Origin: Defluviitaleaceae bacterium
GTDB taxonomy: Bacteria > Bacillota > Clostridia > Lachnospirales > WRAX01
Direction: 5' to 3'
Length of the DNA: 53,466 bases
Assembly (NCBI GenBank): GCA_009781625.1
Contig: WQVI01000002.1
Span: 1 to 53,466 of the forward strand
Position 1 is the first letter of the stretch, and each line of letters starts with the position of its first letter. Both the position numbers and the translations under genes were made by a program. Shown piece by piece: positions 11,958-53,466 of the stretch. The notes beneath the pieces were generated by a model that searched no databases, was not told where the DNA came from, and saw nothing but the letters and a program-made list of their open reading frames with translations.

Positions 11958-11988
11958 AGAAATAAAATGGGCAGCCATAAGGCCGCCC
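11958..11988 (-). terminator. Intrinsic terminator after the two tiny ORFs
   Basis: The minus strand reads GGGCGGCC-TTAT-GGCTGCCC followed by ATTTTATTTC. The one non-Watson-Crick position is a G.U pair on the minus strand but an A.C mismatch on the plus strand. Confidence 0.6.
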
Positions 11989-12008
11989 GCACAAATGCTA
12001 TACTAGTA

Positions 12009-12128: not shown

Positions 12129-12140
12129 ATCTTTTACCTC

Positions 12141-12293: not shown

Positions 12294-12356
12294 GTAAATC
12301 ACTCCTCATGCTGTAAAGTTTCTTAGCTATAGTGTTCACATTTAGGCGGATTTTAT

Positions 12357-13220: not shown

Positions 13221-13370
13221 AATTTCTCCTCCATTTCAATTTGTTTTATACAAGTATATCACAAATTATGGCAATGTCAAATGGCTTTGAAAAAATCATA
13301 CCAAACTGCCGTTAGGGTTATATAACAATACGTAGAACTGCTATACCATGACGGCTTATACTAACCTATA

Positions 13371-14681: not shown

Positions 14682-14833
14682 TGTATTTCCTCCAATCTCA
14701 TCTATAATTTCCAAAGTTGTCCACATTTGAAAACATTAGAGAAATTGTAGCACACCCAAAAGGAATAAATTGGAAATACATGTCGCCATAGAACTTCTTT
14801 CGTGTTAAAAAAAACGACATTAATAGAGCACGG

Positions 14834-38555: not shown

Positions 38556-38584
38556 TTGATAAAATGCCGCCAATGCATTATAAT
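38556..38584 (+). promoter_or_regulatory. Near-consensus sigma-A promoter of the multi-Hsp70 cluster
   Basis: TTGATA (38556-38561), 17 nt, TATAAT (38579-38584). It is the only strong promoter-like site between the peptide terminator and the first cluster ORF. Confidence 0.55.
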
Positions 38585-38600
38585 TAGAAGAAAATGTTAT

Positions 38601-38670
38601 TATAGCAATTCTACTTGAAAACAACGAGGCCGCGTGCGAGCTGAGGCGATTTTCAAGTTGAATTGCTATA
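38601..38670 (+). repeat. Leader inverted repeat (21-bp stem, 28-nt loop)
   Basis: TATAGCAATTCTACTTGAAAA (38601-38621) pairs with TTTTCAAGTTGAATTGCTATA (38650-38670) at 20/21. The repeat sits between the -10 element and the first ORF. Confidence 0.6.
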
Positions 38671-38681
38671 TAAGATAGGTT

Positions 38682-39974
38682 GTGGGGCATTTGTTTGGTT
38701 TTGTCACAAATTTTTTTGCAAATTTCAGCATGGGCGAGCAAATTATGGCCATATTTCTTTGCGTGGCCTTTGTTTTAGTGCTTTTGCTGCGCATAATTTT
38801 GGTTAGCAGCTATAATGGGGGCCTTGCGCTGATAAATAGGGCGTCAAAGGGTGTTAAAACCAAGGGCGATGTGGAGAAGCTGACGGGCGGCACCTTTGCC
38901 CGCGCAGCTAAAGAATATGCCGCCATGGTGTCCGGCGGCGCCAGGACGGATGCGCTGGATGTGGCGCGCATGGCCGTCACAAAAAACCGCCTATATTTCT
39001 TTAATTTTAAAAGCCTAGCGGGTCTTATACGGCTGATAGAACGCGCCTTTCTGCCCTTTGCCATCCTATTCACCCTGGCGGCATCAGCACAAATAGAATT
39101 TGTGATACTGTCCGCCGTTGTCTTTTTGCTGATAATTATTTTTGCTGCCATTTTTGACGTTGATGCAGCACAAGATAGATATGTCACAAATTTAGCTTAT
39201 ATCTTGGCCCGCGACATCGGCAGGCTCTACCCGCCCGACGCCGCAACGGCCGTCTACACCTTCGGCACGGATTTAAATGAATATCTAAATCGTCAATCCG
39301 CCATGTACAACGAGGTGCTAAACAAGATAAAAACCGAATTTGCAGGGGCCATCACGGCCAATATACAAGCCATGGCCAAAAGTGTGGATGCCACGCTTAA
39401 TTCTATCGCAAAGCATGACGCGCTGGACGAGGCCATTGGGCGCTGGGCGTCGGTTGTGGATAAATCCGCGGAAATGCAGTCCGGCGTGGTGGGTGCTAGC
39501 GAAAAATTTGGCGCGGCAGCAGCAGCTATGGCTACATACAGCGCAACCATGCAAAAAAACAGGGAAGAAATGAAAGAAGATATTGTGCTTTTAACCAACG
39601 CCATACAAAAACTAAACCAACTTGCGGCGGCTATGGAAGTGCGAAACACTGCACTGGATGGCGAAGTTGGCCTTGTGCTTGAAAACCAAAAAACCCTTGA
39701 AACCGCCGTGGCTTCGTATGAATTATCGCTAAAAGAAATTACCTCGCAAATGGGCGATGCCATGGGCAAAATTATGGACTATCACCTTGGAAAATCCGGC
39801 GGGCGCATTGCCGATAACATCGCGGATAGCGTGAAACAGGCCCTTTCAGGCGCGCGCATCCAAGAAGAGCATATCAAGAGCATCCTGGAAGAATTTTTAG
39901 AGCAAAACCGATATCAAACAAAGCTACTACTGGAAATGAAAGCCCAAATTGGAGATGCTGATGAGTATAAATAG
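38682..39974 (+). CDS. Membrane protein with long helical (coiled-coil-like) tail, cluster component A
   Basis: There is an N-terminal TM (AIFLCVAFVLVLLLRIILV), a ~80-aa loop and a hydrophobic hairpin (LPFAILFTLAASAQIEFVILSAVVFLLIIIFAAIF). An Ala/Glu/Lys/Asn-rich tail of ~270 aa follows. The start is ambiguous: GTG at 38682, or ATG at 38730 or 38745. Confidence 0.6.
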   Translation: MGHLFGFVTNFFANFSMGEQIMAIFLCVAFVLVLLLRIILVSSYNGGLALINRASKGVKTKGDVEKLTGGTFARAAKEYAAMVSGGARTDALDVARMAVTKNRLYFFNFKSLAGLIRLIERAFLPFAILFTLAASAQIEFVILSAVVFLLIIIFAAIFDVDAAQDRYVTNLAYILARDIGRLYPPDAATAVYTFGTDLNEYLNRQSAMYNEVLNKIKTEFAGAITANIQAMAKSVDATLNSIAKHDALDEAIGRWASVVDKSAEMQSGVVGASEKFGAAAAAMATYSATMQKNREEMKEDIVLLTNAIQKLNQLAAAMEVRNTALDGEVGLVLENQKTLETAVASYELSLKEITSQMGDAMGKIMDYHLGKSGGRIADNIADSVKQALSGARIQEEHIKSILEEFLEQNRYQTKLLLEMKAQIGDADEYK

Positions 39975-41133
39975 ACTGGCCCATCTGGAATATCCCACAC
40001 CAAAAATTGCCCTTAGCACAGACAAAATTGAGGCCCATGGCACAGGCATTGTTGAGGGCAGCTTTGAGGTGCGCAACATCAGCGAGGGAGAGCTTAGCGG
40101 CAGGATAGAGCCTACCATCGATTTTTTAAATTTTTCTTCGGACATTTTTAGAGGCAATAAAGTGAAAATTGAATATAGCCTCAACTTAGAAGGGATGATT
40201 GGCACCCATAAGGCCGCCGCCATCATAACATCCAATGGCGGTGAAAAGACCATTACTTTCGATGTGAGGGCAACCGCGCCTGCAATTGCACGCGATGGCG
40301 TTAAAATTGCCACGCTAGAGCATTTTGCAGAATTTGTTCGCAAAAGCCCCGTAGAAGGCCGCCGCCTTTTTGGACAAAAGGACTTTATGATATGGCTGTT
40401 TAACATGGGATATCCTTCCGTAAGCACTTACGAGAGATTTTTGGACGACCCTAATAAAGACCGTGCCGTGGATAATTTCCTTATTTTCAATGGACTAAAA
40501 AACAAGGCTGGCCTTGTGGTGGAAAACGCAGATACTATCGTAAAGATTGGCCATGGCGAAAGCGCAATTACGGGCGGCATACACTTGCGCAAAACCACAT
40601 GGGGATACGCAGAAGCGGATTTTCATGTGCGACAGGGCGCAAGCTGGCTAAAGCTGTCAAAAAGTCGCGTTACAACTGCGGATTTTAACAAAGAAAATGC
40701 TGCCGAAGTGGATTATATCATAATGGCTGATGAGATAAAACAGCGAGAGACAGCCCTTGTTGACGTGAAGTCAAATTGTGGTGCCATGCAAACCGCCCGT
40801 ATACAATGCAATATTTCAGGGGCCTTTGAAGCGCGGCTGGACAGAGAGATTTATCATCTTGAAGACAGAGGCAAACTATTTTTGCACAATAACACAGGCA
40901 AAGACCTGATGATTGATATATATTGCGAAAATTTCATAAAAATTGAGGCTAAGCGATATTTTATAAGCAAATATGCGGAAATTGGTTTTGATATAAAGTT
41001 TTCCAGTTTAAAAGCCGCTACGTTAGCTTTTAAAAAGCAGCTGCATTCTACAACAGAGATACACATTAGAGCTCTGACCGAGGGGCGTGTTACAGTGAAG
41101 AAACTGAAACTGAAGCTTTGGGGCAAGGTTTAG
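39961..41133 (+). CDS. Beta-rich soluble protein, cluster component B
   Basis: 390 aa. The start is set at the ATG at 39961, 6 nt after GGAG, overlapping gene A by 14 nt. The alternating-pattern sequence is suggestive of Ig-like beta-sandwiches (GTGIVEGSFEVRNISEGELSGRIEP...). No catalytic motif. Confidence 0.6.
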   Translation: MSINRLAHLEYPTPKIALSTDKIEAHGTGIVEGSFEVRNISEGELSGRIEPTIDFLNFSSDIFRGNKVKIEYSLNLEGMIGTHKAAAIITSNGGEKTITFDVRATAPAIARDGVKIATLEHFAEFVRKSPVEGRRLFGQKDFMIWLFNMGYPSVSTYERFLDDPNKDRAVDNFLIFNGLKNKAGLVVENADTIVKIGHGESAITGGIHLRKTTWGYAEADFHVRQGASWLKLSKSRVTTADFNKENAAEVDYIIMADEIKQRETALVDVKSNCGAMQTARIQCNISGAFEARLDREIYHLEDRGKLFLHNNTGKDLMIDIYCENFIKIEAKRYFISKYAEIGFDIKFSSLKAATLAFKKQLHSTTEIHIRALTEGRVTVKKLKLKLWGKV

Positions 41134-41147
41134 GCTTGGGGGGCTAT

Positions 41148-41186
41148 GTCGGCTAAAGCCGACTAAAGATTCCGACTAAACTCGGC
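41148..41186. repeat. Half-copy of the CGACTAAA palindromic element
   Basis: GTCGGCTAAAGCCGACTAAAGATTCCGACTAAACTCGG resembles the left half of the elements at 47506 and 53318. Confidence 0.5.
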
Positions 41187-41223
41187 CTGCACCTTTCAGC
41201 CATTATTTTCATAGGAGCATAAC

Positions 41224-43938
41224 ATGCCTAATCCAACAACAAACAAAATCACATCATACGAAAAGATCTACAATGACAAAAAAACCTCTGCCACGGCCTT
41301 TGCAATGGCAACACGCTTTTACATCGGCTACATTGTCAGTGGCCAGCGGGATTTTTTGCACAAAGCAAATTTTGTTGCAACGGCACATGCAAATCTTGCT
41401 GACATGCCCATGGTTTTTTTACGCGGGCATATATCCTATGAGATGGACAATTTTGATGGTGTGGACAGCCTGCTGTCTTCTTTAAAGCCATACCGCAATG
41501 CCATCAAAGCCCAAAGTGCCGAGCTTTATGCACATTATCTGTATTTTAACTGCGTCTTGGCGCAAGCCCGAGGGAAGCAAAGGGCCGCAAATAAGCATTA
41601 TCGCGCTCTAAGAGACTATTGCAAAGACAACAACCCTCGGTGTGGACATCTGCTTTTAGCTGCCGCTAATTGCGCCTTTGAAAAATATGCCGATGCCCTA
41701 GGCCATCTGCAAGCGGCGTATAAAAATGGCAACAGAAGCCCATTTTTGTATATCTGCCTTGGACGCGCCTTGGAAAATGCCACACCGCAAGATGTGCAGG
41801 TCTCACAGTCGCTTTTGCTACCCATGATGCGATGGTCATTTTCATCGGGATATTATATCGGCGGCATAATTGCAAGAAATCAGGAGAATGTTGAGGAAAT
41901 ACTGCGCAGACATCCATCTGACGGCGAAAAGCTGTACGCAGCATACCCCCTGGACTGGATATTGCACATCATCTGCACCCGCAGAATGATTAACAACGAC
42001 CTATCCCCCGCGGCCTTTCATTTCTACAAAGAGGCCGAAACCCGCCAACTGCACTTCCCACAGCTTTACGATTTCCTCATTCGTGCCGCCCACAAAAACG
42101 GCATAGAAGATATCAGCCGATATTCTGTTGTGCAATATCTGAAACAAGGCGATGTGCCCGAGGATATACTACCATTTGCCTATCATTTGGCCCTAAAGGC
42201 GGCCCATGATGAAGATAATTGGGAATTTTTGGAGAAAATAAGAAAAGATATATTGCAATGCGCCTATCACGCCATAGAAAATAAGCTTTTTGGCAGGTAT
42301 TACTATAGCTTGCATAAATTTTTGCTGGAAACCACCATCCGCGGCAAAACGGTAGATAAAAAAGCCCTCGAAACTGCGGAAGACAGCCTGAAAAATTTGT
42401 TGTTTGCTTACGACATCACTTTTGACGACGACGATGTAAAAAAAGTGCTGATACAAGAGGATTACAAGCGGGGCGAGGTTCTTTACGATGTCAAAGGTGG
42501 GCGCATCCGCGTAAACCTTTGCGACGGCAACGCAAAAATCACTTGCTTTGACGAAAGCTTTACAAATATTATAAATTGCGCCCCCAAAATGTCGAAACTG
42601 GTGGAAAATGTGGATATAACAATCCTTAATCATTTTTTCGCCAAAGGGATAAGCTCCACAGAGGTTCTGGTGGCCCTATGCCAGCACTACATGGATGCAT
42701 ACGATTTATCCGAAAATGCCATAAAAATTTTTGAAAGCGTGGCGGAAAACGGACAAATTTCAGCGGCCTTTAAGATGCAAATTTATGTGTCGCTGGGCAA
42801 TTTTTACGCCAAAGGCCGCAATTATCCAAAAGCGGCAGAATATTACAGACATGTCGATGAAAGCCGCGTGCTGCCCAGATATCTGGAGCAAATGCTGCTA
42901 ACATATGTTCACGCCGGCGAATATGGCCTTGCCAAGCGGCTTATCGCAAAAGGCGTTGGGCATATAAGCGACAAAAACCTGTTTTATGCCGTGAAACATA
43001 TATCAAGCAAGGATATCGGCACAGATGCAAAAGGCTTGGCCGCCCTGGCCGCCCAACAAATTTTGCGTGGCTGGTATGATAAAACCCTGTTGGATTTGAT
43101 AATAAAAAGCCATGTAACAAGCCTTGCGGGCTGGATAGAGCTTGCAAGAAGCCTTTCTGCTATGGGGCTATCAAAACCCGCCCTACACGCAAAAATTTTG
43201 GATGTTGCAATACAAACCCGCAATTCCGACAAAGGTGTGCAATCAATTTTTGGCAAAGCAACCGACGATGCACCGGACATCGACATCCTAAAAGATTTTG
43301 CGGTTTACCTAAGCTACGAAATTATCGTAAACGATCTGATACCAGAATATGACGCAATTTACGCCATGGAAAAGGTTTTCACTGCTACCGGGGAAGAATT
43401 TTTGGCATATGGCCTGGCCCATATCTACATCAAAAATTCTGTCACCACAGCAAACTCCGCTGATATTTTGCACCGCGCCCTAAAGATGGCAATTGCCGCC
43501 GACATAATCTGGCCAATTTTCAAAGAAATAAAAGACAAAAACTATATCTTGCCGTATATAGAAAAGAATCGCCCCTTTTTGCATAGGGGCAAGGTGGGAC
43601 ATGCCGTTAGCTTTCATTACAGGACGGCAGGCGAGACAGATTTTGCCGAAATGCCTATGAAATACCTGCGCTTTGGCCTGTATACCTGCCATGTGCCACA
43701 TTTTTACGGAGAGGAGCTGGAATATTACTTCAAAGAAACGATAGCAACAGGCAGTGTCACAACACAACCCACAAAAATTGAAAATAACCGCCCTCATCTA
43801 CTTGAAAAACCAACAGATTTGTATTATATTATCAATAGTGCCCTTGTGTACGAGCAAATGTTTAAATATGATAAAGTGGAAGAAATTGTGGCGGATAAAT
43901 TGACGGAAAAAGATACGCCTAGGGCGAAATTAATGTAG
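41224..43938 (+). CDS. 904-aa helical-repeat (TPR-like) protein with beta-rich C-terminus, cluster component C
   Basis: It is a long ORF, with AGGAGCATAAC before the ATG. It contains repeated Ala/Leu/Tyr-rich helix pairs (e.g. SLGNFYAKGRNYPKAAEYYRHV). The C-terminal ~120 aa are beta-like. It has no HPD motif and no NTPase motif. Confidence 0.65.
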   Translation: MPNPTTNKITSYEKIYNDKKTSATAFAMATRFYIGYIVSGQRDFLHKANFVATAHANLADMPMVFLRGHISYEMDNFDGVDSLLSSLKPYRNAIKAQSAELYAHYLYFNCVLAQARGKQRAANKHYRALRDYCKDNNPRCGHLLLAAANCAFEKYADALGHLQAAYKNGNRSPFLYICLGRALENATPQDVQVSQSLLLPMMRWSFSSGYYIGGIIARNQENVEEILRRHPSDGEKLYAAYPLDWILHIICTRRMINNDLSPAAFHFYKEAETRQLHFPQLYDFLIRAAHKNGIEDISRYSVVQYLKQGDVPEDILPFAYHLALKAAHDEDNWEFLEKIRKDILQCAYHAIENKLFGRYYYSLHKFLLETTIRGKTVDKKALETAEDSLKNLLFAYDITFDDDDVKKVLIQEDYKRGEVLYDVKGGRIRVNLCDGNAKITCFDESFTNIINCAPKMSKLVENVDITILNHFFAKGISSTEVLVALCQHYMDAYDLSENAIKIFESVAENGQISAAFKMQIYVSLGNFYAKGRNYPKAAEYYRHVDESRVLPRYLEQMLLTYVHAGEYGLAKRLIAKGVGHISDKNLFYAVKHISSKDIGTDAKGLAALAAQQILRGWYDKTLLDLIIKSHVTSLAGWIELARSLSAMGLSKPALHAKILDVAIQTRNSDKGVQSIFGKATDDAPDIDILKDFAVYLSYEIIVNDLIPEYDAIYAMEKVFTATGEEFLAYGLAHIYIKNSVTTANSADILHRALKMAIAADIIWPIFKEIKDKNYILPYIEKNRPFLHRGKVGHAVSFHYRTAGETDFAEMPMKYLRFGLYTCHVPHFYGEELEYYFKETIATGSVTTQPTKIENNRPHLLEKPTDLYYIINSALVYEQMFKYDKVEEIVADKLTEKDTPRAKLM

Positions 43939-43958
43939 GGGCGACCTGTGGTCGCCCG
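43935..43958. repeat. 24-nt stop-plus-hairpin module, intergenic copy
   Basis: The sequence is GTAGGGGCGACCTGTGGTCGCCCG. Its TAG is the stop codon of component C. The stem is GGGCGACC/GGTCGCCC. It matches 52701-52724 at 23/24. Confidence 0.7.
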
Positions 43959-43975
43959 TGATAGAGGAGGAAAAC

Positions 43976-45652
43976 ATGGGAACATTAGGACTAGACATGG
44001 AAAGAGGCCTATATCTAGGCATTGACTTTGGAACAACAAACAGCGTTGTCAGCATCTATAATTTTAAGGATGGCGAAGCGCAGACGATACCAATTGATGG
44101 CGGCAATATCTTCCCAACTGCCATACAATTTGAAACAGACGCCGACGACCCACAAAAGCTGGCGCGCATCTTCGGCGTGCAAGCCAAAGAGGCGGCGGTT
44201 ATCTACCCTCTTTCGACGGTGCTTTCAATAAAGCGCTATCTGGGCAGCGATGCAGCCATAAAAGTGTCCGTTGACGAAAGAGACCACAGCTTCACACCAG
44301 AACAAATTGCCGGCGAAATTTTGGGATATCTAAAGCAAAAGGCAGACCAATACGCCCAAGACGAGCTTAATATCGACGGCGAATTTTCGGGCTGCGTTAT
44401 CACCGTGCCGGCAAATTCTACAGACAAGCAAAAGAAAATGACGAAGCAAGCAGCAGTTTTGGCTGGCTTCGATGAGGATAGCGTATTTCTGCGTCTAGAG
44501 CCTGCGGCGGCGGCCATTTCCTACGCCGTAAACGAAACGAAGGACAAGAAAATTTTGGTTTATGACTTCGGCGGCGGTACTTTTGACGCGTGTATCTTGA
44601 AAATTGAGGCTTCGGACGACGACGAGCCTAATATCTCCATCGTATCCACCTACGGCGATAACGACCTTGGCGGCAACGACATCGACAAAGTCATCATCGA
44701 CATGATTTTAGAAGAATTTAACAAGCTTACTGACGGCGAAATTAATTTGTATGATGAAAATGCTGATGATGGCGTGTCAAAACGTCAGAAAAAAGTGGCC
44801 CAAGTGCGCTTGCAGCAGGTGGCAAATCAGGCGAAGGAAAGGCTTAGCCAATCCAAATCTACAAAGATAACCTTGGCACCGTTTATTCAAGAACCAAAAA
44901 TTGTAAACATCAATATGGAAATTACCCTGGAAGATTTTGAAAACTACAAGCGCCATAGCCGCCAAAACGACCATGAAGAGATTTTTGCAAAATTTGAAGG
45001 CAAAAGCCTTGATGATATCGTAAATTCTACACTGGAATGCATCGACAAATGCCTTGCTGCTGGCAGCCTTTCAGCGGGTGACATTGACGAAATCTTCCTC
45101 GTAGGCGGCAGCTCTTCCATCCCCCTTGTTGGACGCAAAATCACTGAAAAATTCGATAAAGAGCCCTTTAAATCTAAAATAAGCCCGGCACTGTCCATCT
45201 CTCAAGGCGCGGCGTACTATTGCAATATGATAATGATGCCGACGCTAAAGGGCCCCACTGTACAAGAGAAAACCATCCACCCCCTTGGGCTGGAGCTTGC
45301 CGGACGCCGCTTTATGGAAATTGTGGCGGCGGGTATGGACATCCCCAGAGATGGCCTTATCGTAGAAGCCAGCGAGCTTTTAACCACAAATTTCGACAAT
45401 ATACCATCTATGGCCATTGTAGTGTACGAAAATACCGAACCTTCAACCACGGGCGAAGCACAGCAAGTTAGCCGCCCCGGCATGAAACGCCTTGCGGGCA
45501 CCAGCTTGCGCGGCATACCACAGGCGCCTAAAGGCAAAGAGAAGGTTAAAGTAATTTTCAGCATCAGTCAAGATAACATGCTTAAAGTAACGGCAAAATC
45601 CACCAGCGTTGATGGTGCCGTGACAGAATTATCTGTAGACGAGCTTTATTAA
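43976..45652 (+). CDS. Hsp70-family protein 1 (lid-less DnaK-like)
   Basis: The start follows GAGGAGGAAAAC. The motifs are GIDFGTTNS, VITVPANSTD, LEPAAAAISYA, VYDFGGGTFDA, DLGGNDID and FLVGGSSSIPLV, then a beta-sandwich SBD (IHPLGLEL...). It ends without a helical lid. Confidence 0.85.
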   Translation: MGTLGLDMERGLYLGIDFGTTNSVVSIYNFKDGEAQTIPIDGGNIFPTAIQFETDADDPQKLARIFGVQAKEAAVIYPLSTVLSIKRYLGSDAAIKVSVDERDHSFTPEQIAGEILGYLKQKADQYAQDELNIDGEFSGCVITVPANSTDKQKKMTKQAAVLAGFDEDSVFLRLEPAAAAISYAVNETKDKKILVYDFGGGTFDACILKIEASDDDEPNISIVSTYGDNDLGGNDIDKVIIDMILEEFNKLTDGEINLYDENADDGVSKRQKKVAQVRLQQVANQAKERLSQSKSTKITLAPFIQEPKIVNINMEITLEDFENYKRHSRQNDHEEIFAKFEGKSLDDIVNSTLECIDKCLAAGSLSAGDIDEIFLVGGSSSIPLVGRKITEKFDKEPFKSKISPALSISQGAAYYCNMIMMPTLKGPTVQEKTIHPLGLELAGRRFMEIVAAGMDIPRDGLIVEASELLTTNFDNIPSMAIVVYENTEPSTTGEAQQVSRPGMKRLAGTSLRGIPQAPKGKEKVKVIFSISQDNMLKVTAKSTSVDGAVTELSVDELY

Positions 45653-45667
45653 AAGGGGTTATGAACT

Positions 45668-47500
45668 GTGGCCAAAGGCGGCAAACAAAATTTAAAGCAA
45701 GAAGGTAAAATTTTTGGCAAATGGATTGCTATCGCACGCGCCGCTGACGGCTTAGCTGATGGGTTGCGGGCGGATGTTTTTCGCAATGCGAAGCAGCTTG
45801 TTGCGGAAAAAATAAATACAGCTTGTGGCAACGATGAGGCACTGTCTTCTTATGATGCTGAAATTTTTGATTGTTATATGCGCATCATCGGCGCCTACAG
45901 CAAGGTGGTGGGTATCTACCTGGACGAGGAAAAGCCCATCACTTCGCAGCCTGTAAAGGAAATTTGGGATGGCGTTTATGAAGTTTTGGCTTCCAGACTT
46001 TTGGCGATATCAGAAATGGACCATTTGGCCAACCCTGTACAGGCAGAAAAAAAGGAAATTGTGTCAAAAATTATTTTGGACGCGTCAGAACGGATCTTGG
46101 AAAACGACGCTGCTGAGGATAATATTGAAATTAGGCGGCGTCTGTTTTATGCGGATGATAACTTTCAGACCATTTGCGAAGAAATTGCGGAAAATATCAA
46201 AAGCAAATGCATAAATGAATTTTACGCAACATATATTTCTGCCGTGAAGCAAGCCCTTGTAAACCTTAACGATATTTCGTGCCGCGAAAACGTGCTATAT
46301 TATAACGATATGCTGAAAGAAGAGCAAGACATTTTGCGGCAAATTATTGTTGTACAAGTGATGGCGCTGGAAAATGCCATGGGGGAAGGGTTTGCGACGG
46401 AAGAAGAGATTGCTGTGCTGGATGAGGCCCTTAACCTACTGCGAGAGGCCCATCAAAGAGAAAGTGGTGAGATAGACCGCATAGAACGGCTGTTCAACGA
46501 AAGCGCTGCGCGCAACCGTGAAAATATGGGGCGCATTGTGATGGATGTGGAAGATGTGGAAGAATTTGCCGCGTCTTTTGATGCCGTCGCCCCTACCGTT
46601 TTTGAGGAGTCAAAACAAAGCCTTGATAAAGCAATTGATGACTTTAAAAAACTTGTGGAAAGCCTTGCTTCTGCGAAGCTGGGCACATATACCGCCAAGC
46701 TTTCAAAACAAGCTGCTGATGACTGTGAAAAGACCGCGGCAGGGCTTGTTATGATGTCGCGAGACGTCACACAATGCTTCGGCACAATTTTGAGGCACTA
46801 TGACGAAAATACCGAGCATTTGGCGGCCTGTGAAGAAAAGGATATCATCAAAGGCGTGGCAGAAACCATCTTGATAAAAATTGACAGCCTTAACGAAGCC
46901 ATAGAAGCCTTTGAGGAAGATGCCAAAGGGATATTGGGTCTCTTTGCCCAGGGCGAAATGGCTTTCAGCTCTGAAATTACTGCCTTTGAGAAACATCTTG
47001 TGGATAACTTGATGACATACAGCAAATGGGAGAAAAATTGTGGCAAAATTGTGAAAAAGCTTGTAGATGCAGCTTTTGATGGCGAGCTTCTTGCGGAATA
47101 TAAAGAAAAGCTGGAAAGAGGCCTGGTCAGAAAGTCCGAAGGGGCGCAAAAAAAGATGATGGCTTTCAAGAGGGATAATCTCTTTTACGAGCTATCGACC
47201 TTTGAAGAAATTATGCATTATTCTGTTTCGCGCTTGAGAGAAAGTGAAAGCCCTTGTCTTCAAGGCTTTGTGTCAGAAATTGACAGCCAAAATGCAAACA
47301 TAGATGATATCTTAACGAAATACGGCGTGGAGAAAATTGCCCCTGCGGCCCATGATGCGTTTAATCCCAAGGAGAACGAGGTGTTGATGGCTGAAGAAAG
47401 CGAAGGCTTTAATAAGGGCGAAATTATCAAGACCATCAATAGCGGGTATAGGCAGGATGGGACGGTTATAATGCGGGCTAATGTGATTGCGGCAAAATAA
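45668..47500 (+). CDS. 610-aa protein with C-terminal GrpE-like domain
   Basis: The C-terminus KYGVEKIAPAAHDAFNPKENEVLMAEESEGFNKGEIIKTINSGYRQDGTVIMRANVIAAK aligns by eye with E. coli GrpE [59 protein letters not shown]. The N-terminal ~520 aa are helical and acidic. It uses a GTG start. Confidence 0.75.
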   Translation: MAKGGKQNLKQEGKIFGKWIAIARAADGLADGLRADVFRNAKQLVAEKINTACGNDEALSSYDAEIFDCYMRIIGAYSKVVGIYLDEEKPITSQPVKEIWDGVYEVLASRLLAISEMDHLANPVQAEKKEIVSKIILDASERILENDAAEDNIEIRRRLFYADDNFQTICEEIAENIKSKCINEFYATYISAVKQALVNLNDISCRENVLYYNDMLKEEQDILRQIIVVQVMALENAMGEGFATEEEIAVLDEALNLLREAHQRESGEIDRIERLFNESAARNRENMGRIVMDVEDVEEFAASFDAVAPTVFEESKQSLDKAIDDFKKLVESLASAKLGTYTAKLSKQAADDCEKTAAGLVMMSRDVTQCFGTILRHYDENTEHLAACEEKDIIKGVAETILIKIDSLNEAIEAFEEDAKGILGLFAQGEMAFSSEITAFEKHLVDNLMTYSKWEKNCGKIVKKLVDAAFDGELLAEYKEKLERGLVRKSEGAQKKMMAFKRDNLFYELSTFEEIMHYSVSRLRESESPCLQGFVSEIDSQNANIDDILTKYGVEKIAPAAHDAFNPKENEVLMAEESEGFNKGEIIKTINSGYRQDGTVIMRANVIAAK

Positions 47501-47505
47501 GAGGT

Positions 47506-47589
47506 GCGGGGTAAACCCCGCTAAAGTAACGACTACAAGTCGGGCGGCATTGGCTTGTAGCCGTTACTTCTAGTCGGGTTCACCCGACA
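47506..47589. repeat. ~80-nt palindromic intergenic element, copy 1
   Basis: GCGGGGTAAACCCCGC, then TAAAGTAACGACTACAAG...CTTGTAGCCGTTACTTCTA, then GTCGGGTTCACCCGAC. This gives two terminal hairpins flanking a long central stem. Confidence 0.7.
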
Positions 47590-47609
47590 CTGTGTATAAA
47601 GGAAAAATC

Positions 47610-49160
47610 ATGAACTGGAAAAAATATCGCGACTTTTTTGAAAACAACAAAATATCAGAGGACCATTTTGTGCTGGGCATTGACATGGGCGCCGCAACTT
47701 CCGCCATATCCTATTTTGACCCCATCCGCCGCGCGGCAGAGGTACTGGATATCAGCGGCGGCTACGGCAAAGCCTCTGCGCCCACAGCCCTGCAATACAT
47801 CGCTGACACAAAGGAATGGATTTTTGGAGAATACGCCATCCTTAATGTAGATGGCGATGCCAACGCTTTTTTGCTTACAAACTTTGCATCCAAGATGGGC
47901 ACTGGCGAATATATAGACATTGGTACGGGCACCAGGCCTGTGGTTGATATTGCGGCAATTTACTTAAAAGAGCTTATTGCAAATTGTCGCAACATCAATC
48001 CCAAGGCGCAAATAGCGGGCATTGTGGCTACTGTGCCCGACTTTGCAACAGGCGACGTCAAAAACGCTATGCTTGCGGCCTTTAGGGCAGCAGGATATGA
48101 AAGAGTGCTTATAGACCTTATTGACGAGCGTGAGGCACTGCTAACCCGCTATTTCCACAATAAACCAGCCCTAAATGACGAAAGAATATTGGTTTTAGAT
48201 TTTGGCGCGCGCGGCCTGCGCGGCAGCATTTACGATATATCAGACGGCGGACACAATATCAAATGCCTGGCGGCCATGATAGATGAAGATTTAAGCACAT
48301 CTGCCGTGGACGGCTCTATATATGCGCTTTTGGCGGACTATTATTGCAAAAATCAAAAAAAGTCAGCGGCAAAGCTATCTGAAACAGAGCGACAGCAACT
48401 TTACACCTTCGCCCATCAGCATAAAGACATGATATTGGGCCACGACAGTGATAAGGACATTAAACTGTATTTCAACTTCACCTACCCGCCATTTTCGGCG
48501 GCGGTGCCTCAAGGCGATATTTACGGCATTATACAGGCCTATGGCCAAAAGATGCTTGGATTTGTTAACGACCTGTCATCAAAAGTAATGGCCGACAGCA
48601 AGGCCTTTAACGCCGTGATATGCACAGGTGGCGGCTTTGAGATGCCTTGGGCCAAGAAGCGCATCACAACGCTGTTTGGCAAAGAGAGGGTGCAGGTTTA
48701 CAAAAATTCTAAATCTGTGTTGGCCGAAGGGGCCACATATGCGGCAGCTGGCCGCCTGGGTCTTTTACCACAAATGCATTTTGACATAGAGGACGGCCAC
48801 AAAATCCCCTGCGATATTGGCATCCGCATCGCAAATGACGGCAAACACCGCTTCTTGCCTGTGCTGGAGCATGATAGCCTGCTATGGCAAAAGCCCCGCA
48901 CCGTCTATGTCATCTTGCAGGACGAAAACGCCGGCAAAAGCGAAATTGAAATTTTCAAAAGAGATAGAAGCGGCGAGGCCGTGCGCATAGGGGCCGCGCC
49001 CCTTGAGGGCTTTCCTGCACGGCCGGCGGGTGCCACAAAGATATCCATTGGCGTGGTGCCCAAAACTAGAGAAAACTACACCGTTACCATAAAAGACCTA
49101 GGCTTTGGCGAAATTTTTCCGCCGTCGGGCATTTCTAAAAACATTGAGGTGAGCATATGA
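47610..49160 (+). CDS. Hsp70-family protein 2 with degenerate nucleotide-binding loops
   Basis: It is a clear paralogue of the next gene, sharing the MxWxxYR N-extension and the GGxxEMPW motif. Phosphate-1 reads GIDMGAATS, phosphate-2 reads LDFGARGLRG, and the NEPTAAA equivalent reads LIDEREAL. The start is set at the ATG at 47610. Confidence 0.75.
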   Translation: MNWKKYRDFFENNKISEDHFVLGIDMGAATSAISYFDPIRRAAEVLDISGGYGKASAPTALQYIADTKEWIFGEYAILNVDGDANAFLLTNFASKMGTGEYIDIGTGTRPVVDIAAIYLKELIANCRNINPKAQIAGIVATVPDFATGDVKNAMLAAFRAAGYERVLIDLIDEREALLTRYFHNKPALNDERILVLDFGARGLRGSIYDISDGGHNIKCLAAMIDEDLSTSAVDGSIYALLADYYCKNQKKSAAKLSETERQQLYTFAHQHKDMILGHDSDKDIKLYFNFTYPPFSAAVPQGDIYGIIQAYGQKMLGFVNDLSSKVMADSKAFNAVICTGGGFEMPWAKKRITTLFGKERVQVYKNSKSVLAEGATYAAAGRLGLLPQMHFDIEDGHKIPCDIGIRIANDGKHRFLPVLEHDSLLWQKPRTVYVILQDENAGKSEIEIFKRDRSGEAVRIGAAPLEGFPARPAGATKISIGVVPKTRENYTVTIKDLGFGEIFPPSGISKNIEVSI

Positions 49161-50836
49161 AATGGGAAGAATATCGCAGCGAAATAGAGGCCAAGGGCAA
49201 AGTGCCAGAGGATTGGTATATTTTAGGGATAGACCTTGGCACCACAAATTCCGTCATCAGCTATTGGGACGATAGCGCCAAAAGGCCAGAACCCATCGAC
49301 ACTTCCAACGGCTTTGGCAAGGTGCCCCTGCCCAGCGTGGTGCAATATCGCCCCGAGGACGACGGCGAAGGCGAATGGGTTGTAGGCGACGAGGCCCATC
49401 GCAGCTTTAAAATTTATCCGGAGACGACAATACGCTCTATCAAGCGCAAAATGGGCACGGACGAAACCGTGGAAATTGGCGGCAAAAAGCATCTGCCGGA
49501 AGAAATATCCGCCAAAATATTGCGCGAACTTGTGGACTATTGCACCAGCCTAAACCCCAAGGCGGAAATTGCGGGCCTTGTGGTTTCTGTGCCTTACGAC
49601 TTTGACGATGCCGCCAAAAAAGCCACCATGCGGGCCTGCGAACTTGCGGGCCTGTCTGACAAACTGATATGCCTGATAGAAGAGCCCAAAGCCGCCGCCC
49701 TAAATTTTAATTTTAGGCGCGAGCTGACCCAAGACGAAAAGATTTTGGTGTTTGACTTCGGCGGCGGCACCCTGGACATAACCCTGTTTCATGTGGCGGA
49801 AAAAACCGAGGGCAAAATTGTGCTGCAAGTGATTTCCGAGGGCGGCGAGGCCCATCACGGCGGCGACAACATCGACGATATGATTTTGGAGAAATGCTAT
49901 GCCCTCATCAAGGACAAAATTGGGCAAGATGCATCTGATATCGCGCCCGAAAACGCCGCAGAGCTTATTTTGCGCAGCCGCGAGGCCAAAGAGCGTCTGT
50001 CCGGCGTAAAGTCCTTTCGCATCCCTTTTACATTTTGCATCCCGCCCTTTGTAGAGCAAATTACCCGCGAGCAATTTGAAACCCTAATTGCGGATTTTAT
50101 AGAGCGCACCCGCAAGCTGGTGCTAAAAGCCCTGCGCGAGGCCTATACCGGCGCCATCCTGCCTGACAATATTGACAGGGTGCTGATAGAAGGCGGCTCT
50201 TCGGAGATGCCATGGATAAGAGACATGTTTATCGAGATTTTTAACGACGAAAACAAAATTTATAAATCAGAAAAGCCGGCCCATAACATTTCGCTGGGGG
50301 CCACATATTACGCAGCTATGAAAATGGGGCTTTTAACCAGCCCCGATATGGAAGCCCAGGGCGGCGGGGCGCAATCACCCGCCTCGCTAAATGTAGAATT
50401 TGAAGTAACCGTGCCTCACGACATTGGCCTTGAGATACAAAAAGGCACGGGAAAGTCTTTTTTCCCGATGATACGGCGCGGCACGCCCTATGCGCTGGCG
50501 AAGAAAAGCCATATCTTCACCCTTTCGGGCGTGCAACCCGAAGATATGACCCAGCTTGACCTAAAAGTGATGGAGCGCATAGACAAAGACGATAAAATTG
50601 AGGATTGCAAGCTTATTGGCGAAGTGGCCATACGCGGCCTGCCACAGCGGCCTTCCGGCAAGACGCGCCTAAAGGTGACGCTGCTGGTGGAAGAAGAAGG
50701 CGGGCTTGTGAAGGGTGCCGTAGAAGACATGGGCTTTGGTGACGAATACGAGCCAAGCGGCTATAACGAAACCTTTGACCCTTCGCGGTTTAACAAGCGG
50801 ATAGTTGGAAAAGGGGACGCAAATGAAACGCTATAA
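49157..50836 (+). CDS. Hsp70-family protein 3 (lid-less, motifs intact)
   Basis: The motifs are GIDLGTTNS, VVSVPYDFDD, IEEPKAAALN, VFDFGGGTLD, HGGDNIDD and IEGGSSEMPW, then a beta SBD. It forms an ATGA overlap with the Hsp70-2 stop. Confidence 0.85.
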   Translation: MKWEEYRSEIEAKGKVPEDWYILGIDLGTTNSVISYWDDSAKRPEPIDTSNGFGKVPLPSVVQYRPEDDGEGEWVVGDEAHRSFKIYPETTIRSIKRKMGTDETVEIGGKKHLPEEISAKILRELVDYCTSLNPKAEIAGLVVSVPYDFDDAAKKATMRACELAGLSDKLICLIEEPKAAALNFNFRRELTQDEKILVFDFGGGTLDITLFHVAEKTEGKIVLQVISEGGEAHHGGDNIDDMILEKCYALIKDKIGQDASDIAPENAAELILRSREAKERLSGVKSFRIPFTFCIPPFVEQITREQFETLIADFIERTRKLVLKALREAYTGAILPDNIDRVLIEGGSSEMPWIRDMFIEIFNDENKIYKSEKPAHNISLGATYYAAMKMGLLTSPDMEAQGGGAQSPASLNVEFEVTVPHDIGLEIQKGTGKSFFPMIRRGTPYALAKKSHIFTLSGVQPEDMTQLDLKVMERIDKDDKIEDCKLIGEVAIRGLPQRPSGKTRLKVTLLVEEEGGLVKGAVEDMGFGDEYEPSGYNETFDPSRFNKRIVGKGDANETL

Positions 50837-51188
50837 GGCAGCGGCAATTATTATGATAGCCCACGGCCTTATAGAAATAGGCGGCTTCTTTTCAATGCTT
50901 CCGATATGGCTGTTTGGAGCACAGCCGGCCCAAGCTATTCCTTTTGATGCTCCGCCCCCAGAGATAGCCATTGCAGGCTTAATTTGGGGCACAATTAGGC
51001 TAACAGGCGGCGTTGCGCTATTTAAAAACCTATTTTGGGGCCTGGCACTTTCTGTAATAAACTGCATTATCGCCCTAGCTATGATGATAACCCTATTACC
51101 CTTCGGAATTATGGACGGCATATTAGCAAGCGCAGCATTGATTTTAATGTTGACCCAGTATTTCGGAAAGAAAAAGATTGTTGAATAG
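50823..51188 (+). CDS. Small 4-TM membrane protein, cluster component
   Basis: The start is set at MKRYKAAAIIMIAHG..., overlapping the Hsp70-3 3' end. It has four hydrophobic helices and no motif. Confidence 0.55.
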   Translation: MKRYKAAAIIMIAHGLIEIGGFFSMLPIWLFGAQPAQAIPFDAPPPEIAIAGLIWGTIRLTGGVALFKNLFWGLALSVINCIIALAMMITLLPFGIMDGILASAALILMLTQYFGKKKIVE

Positions 51189-51226
51189 AAAGCACAAAAC
51201 TTTGCTGTGAACAGGAGGAGAATGAT

Positions 51227-53308
51227 ATGAGCTTTTTAGGAATTGACCTTGGAACCACCAACAGCGTGGCTATAATTTACAAGGACGTGGCGGGGGACAT
51301 GGAAGTTGTGCGCATCGACGGCACAGACGAGATACTGCCGTCTGTCGTTAGCTATTTGGATGAGGGCGTAGTTGTGGGCGGCGAGGCCAAAAGCGGCGCC
51401 ATTATCTACCCGGAAAGCACTGTGATATCCATAAAGCGGATGATGGGCAGTGACGAGAAGATTATCGTTGGCGGCGTGGAAAAGACACCTGAGGAAATAA
51501 GCAGCGAAATTTTGCGCAAGCTAAAGAAGTCCGCGGAAGAACAAGCCGGAGAGACCTTTGACGAGGTTGTTATCACCCATCCCGCATATTTTAACGATAG
51601 GCAAATTTATGCCACGCGCCAAGCAGGATTGCTGGCAGGCTTTAAAAATGTGTTTCTGCTATCAGAGCCTTTAGCGGCGGCGATAGAATATGGCTATCGC
51701 CAGGGATATGCCCAAACCCTGCTGGTGTACGACCTTGGCGGCGGCACCTTTGACGCCTGTGTGCTGCGCGTGGGTAAGGACGAAAACGGCCAAGAAATTT
51801 TCCAAGAGCTGGCCGACGTGGGGGACATGTCCCTTGGCGGTGATGACTTTGACAGCGAGCTTATACGCTGGATGAAGGAGAAGTTTAAGGAAGAATCTGG
51901 AATAGATTTGGACGGGCTGGATAATGCAGAGCGCAAGCGCGTGTTGCAAAAGCTGAAATTTGAGGCCGAGGCCGCTAAGAAAAAGCTTTCAGGCACCAAC
52001 AAAGCTCAGGTGCGCATAAATCCCCTTGTTATCGTGGATGGTGTGCCCCAAAACCTGTCCCTGGAGATAACCCGCGAAGAATTTGAGGCCATGATACGCA
52101 AATATGTGGACAGAAGCCGCGACATCATCGAAGAAGCCCTAAAGCGGGCTGGATGCGGCGCGGATGAGATATCTAAAGTGATATTGGTGGGCGGCTCTAC
52201 ATTGATACCAATGGTTAAGCGCATGGTGGCAGGCTATATCAAAGAGCCTTATCGCGCGACGGACCCTGCAAAGTCCGTAGCTATGGGTGCCGCCATCTAC
52301 AACTATCTGATGCATCTGCCAAGCTCTAATGTGGTGGTAGGGCAGGTTACGCGCCAAATTTTCGGCACGGAAGCCGTTGTAAACGTGGCCACAAGGGAAA
52401 AGGCGATGATACCCATCATCCCCATGGGCAGCCCAATACCTTCAAGCTTCTCGGATGCCAATTTTGCGGCCGCGGGCGCATCAACTGTCAATGTGGATGT
52501 ATATCAATGGGAGCAAGGGCACGAGCACGACAGGAAATACATGGGCAGCGTTATTATGTCCGGCCTTTCAGGCACAACACAACTGGAGATAACCTACGCC
52601 ATCGACGAAAACAACCTCTTCGAGGTTTATGTCAAAGACATAGCCACGGGTAATATGCAAAAAGCAGAATTTGACCGTACCCAGTTTGTAGCACCACCCA
52701 GTAGGGGCGACCTGCGGTCGCCCGAACACAGCGGCAACGTAAATGTCGTCTTCTGCATTGATACAACAGGAAGCATGGACACCTACATCAACGGTGTCAA
52801 AGACCGTGCCATAGAATTTGCGCAAATCCTAGCCAGCAAAGGCGCCACATTTAAGCTGGGCCTCATAGGCTTTGGCGACCTGGGCGAAAACGAAAAGCCC
52901 AGCGTATACAACTTTACCAACGATGTGACCAAATTTCAAAAGCAGGTGAAAAATATACCGCGGACATATGGTGGCGATATTCCAGAATCTGCCCTGGATG
53001 CCCTGGAGACGGGCATAGAGCTTCTTTCATCCACCCGTCACGAGGTTGCCTCAAAATCTATATTCATTCTTATCACCGATGCGCCACCTCATGTGCCCAC
53101 ATATACGGGCAAATCTGTGATGGACATCTGCGATATGCTTAACAGCAACGGTGTGGTGACATATGTGGTGGCCAGAAAAGACCGGGACAGCATAGAAGCC
53201 TACGACCCCATAACCAAGCCCCATGGCAAGTATTACGACCTTTCTGATAAGTTTTATGATATTTTGGATAATATAGCCGCCAGCATAGCGGAGCTTATAA
53301 GGCTGTAG
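51227..53308 (+). CDS. Hsp70-family protein 4 fused to a C-terminal vWA (MIDAS) domain
   Basis: AGGAGGAGAATGAT precedes the ATG. The motifs are GIDLGTTNS, VITHPAYFND, SEPLAAAIEYG, VYDLGGGTFD, LGGDDFD and LVGGSTLIPMV, with a beta SBD. After a linker comes VNVVFCIDTTGSMD...IGFGD...GGDIPES...FILITDAPPH, a vWA fold with a DxTxS MIDAS. Confidence 0.85.
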   Translation: MSFLGIDLGTTNSVAIIYKDVAGDMEVVRIDGTDEILPSVVSYLDEGVVVGGEAKSGAIIYPESTVISIKRMMGSDEKIIVGGVEKTPEEISSEILRKLKKSAEEQAGETFDEVVITHPAYFNDRQIYATRQAGLLAGFKNVFLLSEPLAAAIEYGYRQGYAQTLLVYDLGGGTFDACVLRVGKDENGQEIFQELADVGDMSLGGDDFDSELIRWMKEKFKEESGIDLDGLDNAERKRVLQKLKFEAEAAKKKLSGTNKAQVRINPLVIVDGVPQNLSLEITREEFEAMIRKYVDRSRDIIEEALKRAGCGADEISKVILVGGSTLIPMVKRMVAGYIKEPYRATDPAKSVAMGAAIYNYLMHLPSSNVVVGQVTRQIFGTEAVVNVATREKAMIPIIPMGSPIPSSFSDANFAAAGASTVNVDVYQWEQGHEHDRKYMGSVIMSGLSGTTQLEITYAIDENNLFEVYVKDIATGNMQKAEFDRTQFVAPPSRGDLRSPEHSGNVNVVFCIDTTGSMDTYINGVKDRAIEFAQILASKGATFKLGLIGFGDLGENEKPSVYNFTNDVTKFQKQVKNIPRTYGGDIPESALDALETGIELLSSTRHEVASKSIFILITDAPPHVPTYTGKSVMDICDMLNSNGVVTYVVARKDRDSIEAYDPITKPHGKYYDLSDKFYDILDNIAASIAELIRL
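52701..52724. repeat. 24-nt hairpin module, in-frame coding copy (Hsp70-vWA linker)
   Basis: GTAGGGGCGACCTGCGGTCGCCCG encodes S-RGDLRSP-E. The TAG at 52702-52704 is out of frame here. Confidence 0.7.
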
Positions 53309-53317
53309 GGCAGATGT

Positions 53318-53395
53318 GTCGGGTAAACCCGACTAAAAGTAATGACTACAAGTCATACGGTTTGTAACCGTTACTTCTAGTCGGGTTTACCCGAC
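53318..53395. repeat. ~80-nt palindromic intergenic element, copy 2
   Basis: GTCGGGTAAACCCGAC, then TAAAAGTAATGACTACAAG...TTTGTAACCGTTACTTCTA, then GTCGGGTTTACCCGAC. It is a near-perfect palindrome, alignable along its length with 47506-47589. Confidence 0.7.
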
Positions 53396-53413
53396 ATCCC
53401 CGATGGAGATTTG

Positions 53414-53466
53414 ATGACAAACCTATACCTAACCGCATCACAAAGCGAAAATGATATACCCTACAC
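53414..53466 (+). CDS. Start of a further cluster ORF (truncated by window end)
   Basis: GGAGATTTG precedes the ATG. It begins MTNLYLTASQSENDIPY... on the same strand, right after the palindromic element. Confidence 0.4.
   Translation, partial: MTNLYLTASQSENDIPY

Follow-up and report, generated by a model that had tools for sequence, protein, structure and literature searches.

What kind of cellular system encodes four Hsp70 paralogues side by side, none with a helical lid, together with a GrpE-like exchange factor and a vWA domain, and with no J-protein? The question is posed by a 53,466-nucleotide stretch of Defluviitaleaceae contig WQVI01000002.1 (GCA_009781625.1), referred to here as the window, in which a gene cluster runs from a promoter at 38556 to the window end. 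A preliminary description of this stretch recognized no named system with such an architecture and suggested that the cluster could be stress or phage responsive, by analogy with MoxR-vWA conflict systems. NCBIfam, PADLOC, and the literature likewise supply no name for it, and our analysis points to a machine resident in the cell rather than a module for heat shock or phage defense. From sequence comparisons, we favor, with moderate confidence, interpreting it as a self-contained, J-independent Hsp70-derivative remodeling complex built on an Ig-like/TPR scaffold.

A conserved operon divergent from hisS-aspS

The nine open reading frames (ORFs) of the cluster lie at the coordinates first assigned to them, every long ORF from 38556 to the window end is on the plus strand, and the promoter is where it was placed. 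The features of the locus are given below; identities are those of orthologues to the window proteins over one shared set of loci.

38556-38584, plus strand: sigma-70-type promoter (TTGATA-17-TATAAT, score 11/12) that drives the operon
38682-39974, plus strand: protein A, with N-terminal transmembrane (TM) helices and an Ala-rich coiled coil of ∼260 aa; accessory, semi-conserved first gene; identity 19-70%
39961-41133, plus strand: protein B, 394 aa, N-terminal part of DUF5717 (DUF5717_N positions 5-264, E = 1e-37); identity 30-70%
41224-43938, plus strand: protein C, 904 aa, rest of DUF5717 (DUF5717_N positions 346-867 plus the DUF5717 C-terminal model); identity 30-62%
43976-45652, plus strand: Hsp70-1 (Pfam HSP70, E = 3e-70), catalytically intact, lid-less, and linker-less; identity 74-90%
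45668-47500, plus strand: GrpE-like exchange factor, 610 aa (Pfam GrpE, E = 3e-12, residues 486-609 only); identity 27-60%
47610-49160, plus strand: Hsp70-2, a DUF5716 protein (Pfam DUF5716_C, E = 1e-26; weak HSP70, E = 2e-13); identity 36-67%
49157-50836, plus strand: Hsp70-3 (Pfam HSP70, E = 1.5e-57), catalytically intact and lid-less; identity 69-87%
50823-51188, plus strand: small 4-TM protein, 127 aa; lineage-specific passenger gene
51227-53308, plus strand: Hsp70-4::vWA (Pfam HSP70, E = 6e-95, plus VWA and VWA_4); identity 77-92%
53414-53466, plus strand: start of a conserved TPR protein (MTNLYLTASQSENDIPY aligns with TPR N-termini in L018, L020, and L024)
38520-38492, minus strand: divergent promoter for hisS-aspS (score 12/12)
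36848-38089, minus strand: hisS, sharing the divergent promoter with aspS; identity 63-80%
35073-36848, minus strand: aspS, sharing the divergent promoter with hisS; identity 73-85%

The identities of the three active Hsp70s exceed those of hisS and aspS in the same loci, and these ATPases are therefore more constrained than the aminoacyl-tRNA synthetases.

We retrieved ∼25 related loci, several of which are short contig fragments, with ∼19 long enough to show gene order. The order DUF5717, Hsp70-1, GrpE-like, DUF5716, Hsp70-3, Hsp70::vWA is kept wherever the sequence reaches, except in two loci (L027 and L028), so that the cluster is a multi-gene unit retained across many genomes. Headed by protein A (A-B-C-Hsp70-1-GrpE-like-DUF5716-Hsp70-3-Hsp70::vWA), the order is present, as far as the contigs reach, in 15 GTDB species representatives, which are termite-gut Defluviitaleaceae and 'Clostridiales' metagenome-assembled genomes (MAGs). 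Metagenome contigs show the cluster order as well, as does Anaeropeptidivorans aminofermentans (Lachnospiraceae), whose genome is complete, and one DUF5717 protein cluster is annotated as Epulopiscium sp. The tentative statement in the preliminary description, that Clostridia carry DUF genes beside 'Hsp70 family protein' genes, proves right, the families being DUF5716 and DUF5717. At E < 1e-3 the DUF5717 profile matches 748 clusters (50% identity) among 1.84 billion representatives, 161 of them at E < 1e-30, and Hsp70::vWA orthologues of ∼690 aa form at least 120 clusters (90% identity), each at least 76% identical to the window protein. As far as sampled, the operon is restricted to Clostridia, many of its carriers belonging to the order Lachnospirales.

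The distant contigs L023 (63% GC) and L024 (30% GC) code for a fused DUF5717 protein and keep the gene order, with no protein A. Scaffold identity to the window is only ∼24 to 30% in contigs of this type. In the 63% GC contig it is ∼24 to 27%, and Hsp70::vWA there retains 73% identity to the window protein. The first of the two exceptions to the order, L027 (GCA_047974615.1, 24% GC, 4842-13558), lacks Hsp70-1 and Hsp70-3; it codes for B, C, a GrpE-like protein of 485 aa, a pseudo-Hsp70 of the DUF5716 type, and Hsp70::vWA, and this five-gene set is likely the minimal core of the system. The second, L028 (JGI 3300009826, 4913-14705), has A-B-C, with a C of 1029 aa, and then on the opposite strand a 1481-aa EssC-like double FtsK/SpoIIIE ATPase and several unknown genes, which together look like a block for type VII secretion.

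In the window, and in relatives with scaffold identities as low as ∼45%, the cluster and hisS-aspS point away from each other, and the operon promoter (-35 box, spacer core, and -10 box) is identical base for base in L002, L010, and L005. In other genomes the neighbors are rlmL, a UvrD/PDDEXK helicase-nuclease, leuS, and smc in one context, trmK and NIF3 in another, or thrC and an aminotransferase in a third. The GC content of the cluster is 47.4%, compared to 45.7% for the rest of the window. Neither the 72,556 plasmids nor the 50,697 phage records searched by tblastn contain a match to DUF5717. PADLOC-DB v2 gives no meaningful system match to the cluster; two Hsp70s weakly match the candidate model PDC-M61B (E = 5.6e-8 and 5.7e-5), and what is returned for protein A is coiled-coil noise. 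Because of the hisS-aspS neighbors, the conserved promoter, the flank-like GC content, the lack of a plasmid or phage copy, and the lack of a PADLOC match, the operon is predicted to be chromosomal, resident, vertically inherited, and non-mobile.

We note two further features of these flanks. A divergent class I/II aminotransferase of ∼360 aa is encoded immediately upstream of DUF5717 in both L024 (8698-9795) and L027 (3614-4684), on the minus strand in each; this shared upstream gene, at the position of hisS in the window clade, is possibly a coincidence. A HEPN plus nucleotidyltransferase (Polbeta/NTP_transf_2) pair lies between hisS and aspS in the close relative L002 (2421-3156) as a toxin-antitoxin-like insertion into a flank that is conserved in other respects.

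Lid-less Hsp70s, their exchange factor, and the DUF5717 scaffold

Pfam supports the domains read directly from the sequence in Hsp70-1, Hsp70-3, Hsp70-4 (including its vWA domain), and the GrpE-like protein. The Hsp70 motifs that had been assigned to all four paralogues are intact in three of them: D8, T11/T12, K70, E171, D194, T199, and D201 are retained in Hsp70-1, -3, and -4 and their orthologues (residues are those of E. coli DnaK, which serves for numbering only). In the fourth, Hsp70-2, they are degenerate. Neither Hsp70-2 nor any of its orthologues retains the phosphate-1 threonines, K70, or GGGTxD; Hsp70-2 itself has GIDMGAATS, no K70, and LDFGARGLRG, and G[AS]R[GE]LRG replaces GGGTxD across orthologues. 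It scores 93.9 bits with DUF5716_C (cutoff, 34.7 bits), and this DUF5716 protein is a conserved degenerate pseudo-ATPase. The paralogues share only 18 to 34% pairwise identity with each other and with DnaK, and the duplications are therefore old.

All four Hsp70s keep the beta-sandwich substrate-binding domain (SBD) and lack the helical lid, as had been proposed. Aligned to DnaK, Hsp70-1, -2, and -3 have only 8 to 27 residues past the column of DnaK residue 507, and Hsp70-4 aligns to DnaK residues 4-500 and continues through a variable spacer of ∼20 residues into the vWA domain, which replaces the lid. The hydrophobic DVLLLD linker is lost in Hsp70-1 (GPTVQE at this position), Hsp70-2 (DIEDGH), and Hsp70-3 (NVEFEV), and is partial in Hsp70-4 (NVVVGQ); R167 is also replaced in the alignment with DnaK. 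With whole-protein scores against the curated cutoffs of the NCBIfam equivalogs NF001413 and TIGR02350 as the test for a canonical DnaK, Hsp70-4 reaches 349 bits, Hsp70-1 243, Hsp70-3 203, and Hsp70-2 28 against the NF001413 cutoff of 648, and all four are far below the NCBIfam DnaK and HscA equivalog cutoffs.

There is no HPD tripeptide in the nine cluster proteins and no DnaJ Pfam match at E ≤ 0.01, in keeping with the initial view that the cluster contains no J-protein. The controlling inverted repeat of chaperone expression (CIRCE; TTAGCACTC-N9-GAGTGCTAA) is also absent at ≤3 mismatches from the whole window, including the promoter, and CtsR-box matches in the window are at chance level with none at the promoter. 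The cluster is not the canonical hrcA-grpE-dnaK-dnaJ operon, again as first stated. Pfam matches no effector-type domain, AAA+/MoxR protein, or GTPase in the cluster proteins, and these also have no Walker A/P-loop motif.

The Hsp70-1 C terminus is TELxVD(E/D)LY in every orthologue, including that of the 63% GC contig L023, and its tail (...VDELY) resembles, by analogy, the EEVD tail bound by eukaryotic TPR co-chaperones. Hsp70-2 is predicted to be translationally coupled to Hsp70-3, with an ATGA start-stop overlap that was noted at the outset and recurs in L002, L010, and L020-L022. The vWA domain of Hsp70-4 (residues 506-674) has metal ion-dependent adhesion site (MIDAS) elements (DTTGS, GGDIPES, and ITDAPPH) that are invariant among 121 Hsp70::vWA sequences, and it is as conserved as the nucleotide-binding domain (NBD), with a mean identity to the window residue of 0.82 in these sequences.

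The 610-aa protein scores 47 bits with Pfam GrpE (cutoff, 25.8), and the domain is matched in all 12 of 12 orthologues. Its scores with the NCBIfam GrpE equivalogs are all far under the cutoffs, so that it carries a GrpE domain but is no orthologue of the housekeeping GrpE. High conservation is confined to the C-terminal ∼100 aa, which have GrpE beta-domain motifs; the N-terminal extension of ∼480 aa is helical and variable, with a few conserved motifs. The protein also varies in size, being 267 aa long in L023 and 485 aa long in L027. A profile search against PDB sequences gives coiled-coil noise only, and Pfam scans at permissive thresholds, run on every orthologue of A, B, and the GrpE-like protein, add nothing further.

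Proteins B and C had been described as separate proteins, beta rich and helical repeat, respectively. They are instead two parts of one family, because they match complementary positions of the DUF5717 profile (129.9 bits for B on DUF5717_N; 112.4 and 77.7 bits for C), and fused DUF5717 proteins of 1179 to 1302 aa exist elsewhere. The operon thus codes for a putative DUF5717 scaffold of ∼1300 aa, here split into B and C. The AlphaFold2 model of B (predicted local distance difference test [pLDDT] score of 74) has three Ig-like beta-sandwiches and a small helical domain, and its Foldseek neighbors are Ig domains of the ASH/PapD/MSP type (Hydin, CEP192 SPD-2, OCRL ASH, and MSP); a profile search of B against PDB sequences finds nothing. 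The model of C (mean pLDDT, 82.5) predicts a TPR-like solenoid (1-390), a beta-sandwich (395-458), a second solenoid (465-781), and a beta domain (786-852). Two segments of C, residues 762-777 and 856-904, have low pLDDT yet are dense in invariant residues (PIFKEIKDK..YIEKN.PF and EQMFKYD.VEEI), and we infer that they are motifs that fold on a partner. Foldseek comparison of C with the PDB returns only generic TPR scaffolds (Ski3, Ctr9, IFT-A, and Naa15) with TM-scores of ∼0.15, and homology to IFT-A or nucleoporins was accordingly rejected, these matches being to generic TPR solenoids.

Protein A has hydropathy peaks at residues 14-51 and 112-165. It has no significant Pfam family, and Pfam and PDB profile searches give coiled-coil noise; orthologues of 19 to 70% identity are at the same position in 13 loci. 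The description of the cluster as membrane-associated holds only in part: protein A has TM helices, but L023, L024, and L027 have no such protein, and the 4-TM gene is merely carried along.

Passenger genes, repeats, and regulatory sequences

The 4-TM gene had been counted as a cluster member. It belongs to no significant family, and its sole match among 22 loci is in the identical contig L001; with no homologue in any related locus, it is a passenger outside the conserved system. It falls into a wider class of passengers: several termite-gut Defluviitaleaceae MAGs (L003/L004/L007, L005, L008, L012, L014, L015, and L016) have unrelated small genes between the core genes, nearly all on the same strand. 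These code for Uma2 nuclease-fold, metallo-beta-lactamase-fold, glyoxalase, methyltransferase, and NUDIX proteins, as well as unknowns. One or two metallo-beta-lactamase-fold genes recur between Hsp70-1 and the GrpE-like gene, and L005 has a 5-kb insert coding for three unknown proteins of ∼500 aa. The ORF at 53414 is the N terminus of a conserved protein: the TPR protein is 387 aa in relatives and follows Hsp70::vWA in L018, L020, and L024.

A palindromic intergenic repeat resembling repetitive extragenic palindromes or miniature inverted-repeat transposable elements (REP/MITE-like) is present within the cluster.

47505-47590, no strand assigned: copy 1, between the GrpE-like gene and Hsp70-2
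53316-53397, no strand assigned: copy 2, after Hsp70::vWA, organized as copy 1
41146-41185: partial degenerate copy, between B and C

The ∼85-nt repeat has terminal hairpins (GYSGGGTAAACCCSRC) around an inner inverted repeat (GTAAYGACTACAAGTC ... GTTACTTCTAG), and the hairpin motif has 7 matches compared to 0.1 expected by chance. Both the window and the independent ENA assembly L001 stop ∼70 nt past the last copy, and the repeat therefore probably breaks assemblies.

Between the promoter and the first gene (38594-38676, plus strand), the 5' untranslated region contains a ∼20-bp inverted repeat with a predicted RNA fold (-31.1 kcal/mol, z = -3.7). We considered this hairpin as a conserved regulator and rejected it, since it is not found in the three closest relatives, in which the start codon is no more than ∼35 nt past the promoter; it is instead a window-specific insertion and looks like another small inserted palindrome. 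The start codons proposed at 39961, 43976, 47610, and 50823 agree with orthologue alignments better than the longest-ORF starts do and are preferred, because alignment with orthologues begins at residue 7 of the longest-ORF translation for Hsp70-1 and Hsp70-2 and at residues 1-10 for B.

An Rfam scan of the window at gathering thresholds finds nothing within or beside the cluster; the sole match is a cobalamin riboswitch (RF00174, 66.9 bits) far upstream at 11592-11784 on the minus strand. We also note a 753-aa ORF with no Pfam match (31243-33504, minus strand) and a 605-aa protein with weak FG-GAP repeats (28585-30402, plus strand), encoded next to dnaB and a hemolysin-III-like gene.

Possible roles and relation to known systems

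The operon brings its own GrpE-type exchange factor, a scaffold of ∼1300 aa, and a vWA/MIDAS module in place of the lid. Under the J-independent remodeling model, the cluster proteins would form one complex in which the Hsp70s operate without a J-protein and are recruited to, and held on, the DUF5717 scaffold through fixed contacts. Candidate contacts are docking of the Hsp70-1 C-terminal peptide (...VDELY-COOH) into TPR repeats in an EEVD-like manner and binding of an SBD or the MIDAS by the conserved unstructured tail motifs of C. Hsp70-2 and Hsp70-3 may be a stable pair, as Ssz1 is with its partners, and the GrpE-like factor would reset the ATPases. The vWA MIDAS may grip an acidic residue of a dedicated client, and cycles of ATP hydrolysis would then remodel, assemble, or release that client, in parallel to the MoxR-vWA pairs CbbQO, NorQD, and BchID, which have an AAA+ motor. 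In some lineages, protein A may provide a membrane tether. More tentatively, this could be an unrecognized class of Hsp70 machine, a hetero-oligomer in which three active Hsp70s and a pseudo-Hsp70 function with no J-protein, the scaffold (through the EEVD-like Hsp70-1 tail) and the vWA domain serving to deliver clients and to couple the ATPases. It is conceivable, and no more certain, that this class is the bacterial Hsp70-powered counterpart of MoxR-vWA activases or of Hsc70 coat disassembly, acting in a core process of Lachnospirales.

Several observations weigh against the remodeling complex. A housekeeping DnaJ encoded elsewhere in the genome could act on the cluster Hsp70s. Neither the downstream TPR protein nor protein A is universal, the latter not being found upstream in L023, L024, or L027, and in L028 the genes after A-B-C are an unrelated, oppositely oriented EssC-like block that stands in the place of the Hsp70 genes. 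The model of B was built on a four-sequence alignment that includes fused DUF5717 proteins. The partner proteins (A, B, C, GrpE-like, and DUF5716) evolve fast, and this, together with passengers that include Uma2, would also fit a conflict-related role.

Among the alternatives, a coat- or cytoskeleton-like lattice fares no worse than any other, although we consider it unlikely. Here the scaffold and membrane protein A would form a lattice that the Hsp70s and GrpE-like factor assemble or disassemble, as Hsc70 uncoats clathrin, and the extreme conservation of the ATPases would reflect many fixed interfaces. In its favor, the modeled architecture is one of beta domains followed by an alpha-solenoid, the solenoids of IFT-A and nucleoporins are among the Foldseek neighbors, as are ASH domains from ciliary proteins, and the first gene in most loci codes for a membrane-anchored coiled-coil protein. 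However, the Foldseek matches are generic (TM-scores of ∼0.15 to 0.2), protein A is missing in distant loci, and the fast evolution of the scaffold is unusual for a lattice protein.

The stress- or phage-responsive role first suggested for the cluster would make it an NTPase-plus-vWA conflict (antiphage or abortive-infection) system, with Hsp70 in the role of MoxR or a GTPase and the Ig/TPR scaffold sensing the invader. The combination of NTPase, vWA, TPR, Ig-like, coiled-coil, and membrane components follows the grammar of MoxR-vWA systems, and there is a likeness to the GAP1-N2 GTPase theme with its HSP70, GrpE, and FNIII-DnaJ/TPR protein (PMC7159879); Hsp70-like modules are also present in CoCoNuT restriction systems (PMC11090510). 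The fast-evolving A, B, C, GrpE-like, and DUF5716 proteins and the Uma2 nuclease-fold and other passengers inside related clusters point the same way. Nonetheless, the cluster has no effector domain, GTPase, GAP1, P-loop, or AAA+ protein, and its matches in PADLOC are two weak Hsp70-type ones to PDC-M61B (best E = 5.6e-8). Its position by hisS-aspS is fixed in many species, distant loci also have housekeeping flanks, the GC content is like that of the flanks, and DUF5717 is absent from the plasmid and phage collections. The ATPases, moreover, are more conserved than the neighboring aminoacyl-tRNA synthetases, and we know of no defense system with proteins conserved to such a degree. We therefore regard a conflict role as improbable, and the original suggestion is not upheld.

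The weakest alternative is that these are ordinary extra DnaK/GrpE heat-shock or proteostasis paralogues that use the housekeeping DnaJ on unfolded proteins generally, which we consider very improbable: the Pfam HSP70 and GrpE matches are clear, catalytic residues are intact in three paralogues, and DnaK duplication is reported to be common in bacteria with complex proteomes (PMC11019930), but the best score is 349 bits against 648 and all are far below the NCBIfam DnaK/HscA cutoffs, the lid is missing, the VLLLD linker is lost in three paralogues, R167 is replaced, there is no DnaJ in the cluster, no CIRCE, and CtsR boxes only at chance level, one paralogue is a pseudo-ATPase, and linkage with DUF5716, DUF5717, and vWA is obligate across genomes.

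The preferred reading, a J-independent remodeling complex, bears on how Hsp70s work, since Hsp70 function is commonly held to depend on a J-protein and the lid. Here, three intact Hsp70s are under stronger constraint than neighboring aminoacyl-tRNA synthetases despite the loss of the lid, of the linker, and of a linked J-protein. The operon is a compact, well-defined example of Hsp70 derivatives, and its carriers include at least one cultured and completely sequenced species, A. aminofermentans. If the reading is right, the cycles of Hsp70 ATP hydrolysis would be coupled to a specific client independently of a J-protein, and a function could be assigned to the Pfam families DUF5716 and DUF5717. 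The genes are not new to databases, as they are already cataloged as DUF5716/DUF5717 and Hsp70 family ('DUF5717 family protein' and 'Hsp70 family protein' at NCBI; DUF5716 and DUF5717 in Pfam); our literature searches found no paper on this cluster or on either DUF family.

With the canonical DnaK-DnaJ-GrpE system, the cluster shares the NBD catalytic residues (in three paralogues), the beta-sandwich SBD, and a GrpE-fold factor encoded alongside. It differs in having no lid, J-protein, or CIRCE, in the loss of the VLLLD linker in three paralogues, and in having four paralogues (including a pseudo-ATPase), a 610-aa GrpE-like protein, a vWA fusion, and an obligatory DUF5717 scaffold. Eukaryotic Hsp70 networks include Hsp110, Ssz1 of the ribosome-associated complex, and TPR co-chaperones with the EEVD tail as their ligand. 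The cluster may be likened to them in pairing a degenerate Hsp70 with active ones, in the conserved acidic/hydrophobic Hsp70 tail, and in the TPR proteins alongside; this is analogy and not homology, and the cluster has no J-protein partner such as Zuotin.

In the MoxR-vWA pairs RavA-ViaA, CbbQ-CbbO, NorQ-NorD, and BchI-BchD, an ATP-driven remodeling motor is coupled to a vWA/MIDAS adaptor, and the Bat operon of Bacteroides codes for MoxR, vWA, TPR, and membrane proteins. MoxR-vWA ternary conflict systems pair a MoxR-type AAA+ protein with vWA and with variable effectors (PMC7159879). The vWA domain with a complete MIDAS in Hsp70-4 recalls these pairs, but the motor is an Hsp70 and not an AAA+ protein, the vWA domain is part of the motor protein itself, where it replaces the lid, and there are no MoxR, DUF58, or Bat homologues.

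The nearest published gene neighborhood is the GAP1-N2 GTPase-centric theme, in which HSP70 and GrpE accompany a protein whose FNIII repeats are joined to DnaJ or TPR (Kaur, Burroughs, Iyer, and Aravind 2020, PMC7159879). In both, Hsp70, GrpE, a second Hsp70-type protein, and Ig-like plus TPR repeats are found together in Firmicutes. The defining GTPases are absent from this cluster, as are GAP1, zinc ribbons, SLATT and other effectors, and a DnaJ fusion; its Ig-like domains match ASH/PapD/MSP folds, and its context is housekeeping.

We place the cluster, itself uncharacterized, among the Hsp70 chaperone systems. Two reviews of bacterial Hsp70s (PMC13580251; Mayer 2021, PMC8215388) mention neither a vWA fusion nor Clostridia. 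The first of these, from FEBS J in 2026, describes bacterial 'DnaK derivates' (HscC, YegD, and many Myxococcus NBD derivatives) in which lids are shortened or deleted, linkers altered, and domains added, and which are presumed to be J-protein independent; it terms lid-less, linker-altered derivates unexplored in general (PMC13580251). The Hsp70s described here differ from these derivates in belonging to one fixed operon, six to nine genes long, that also supplies an exchange factor and a scaffold dedicated to them.

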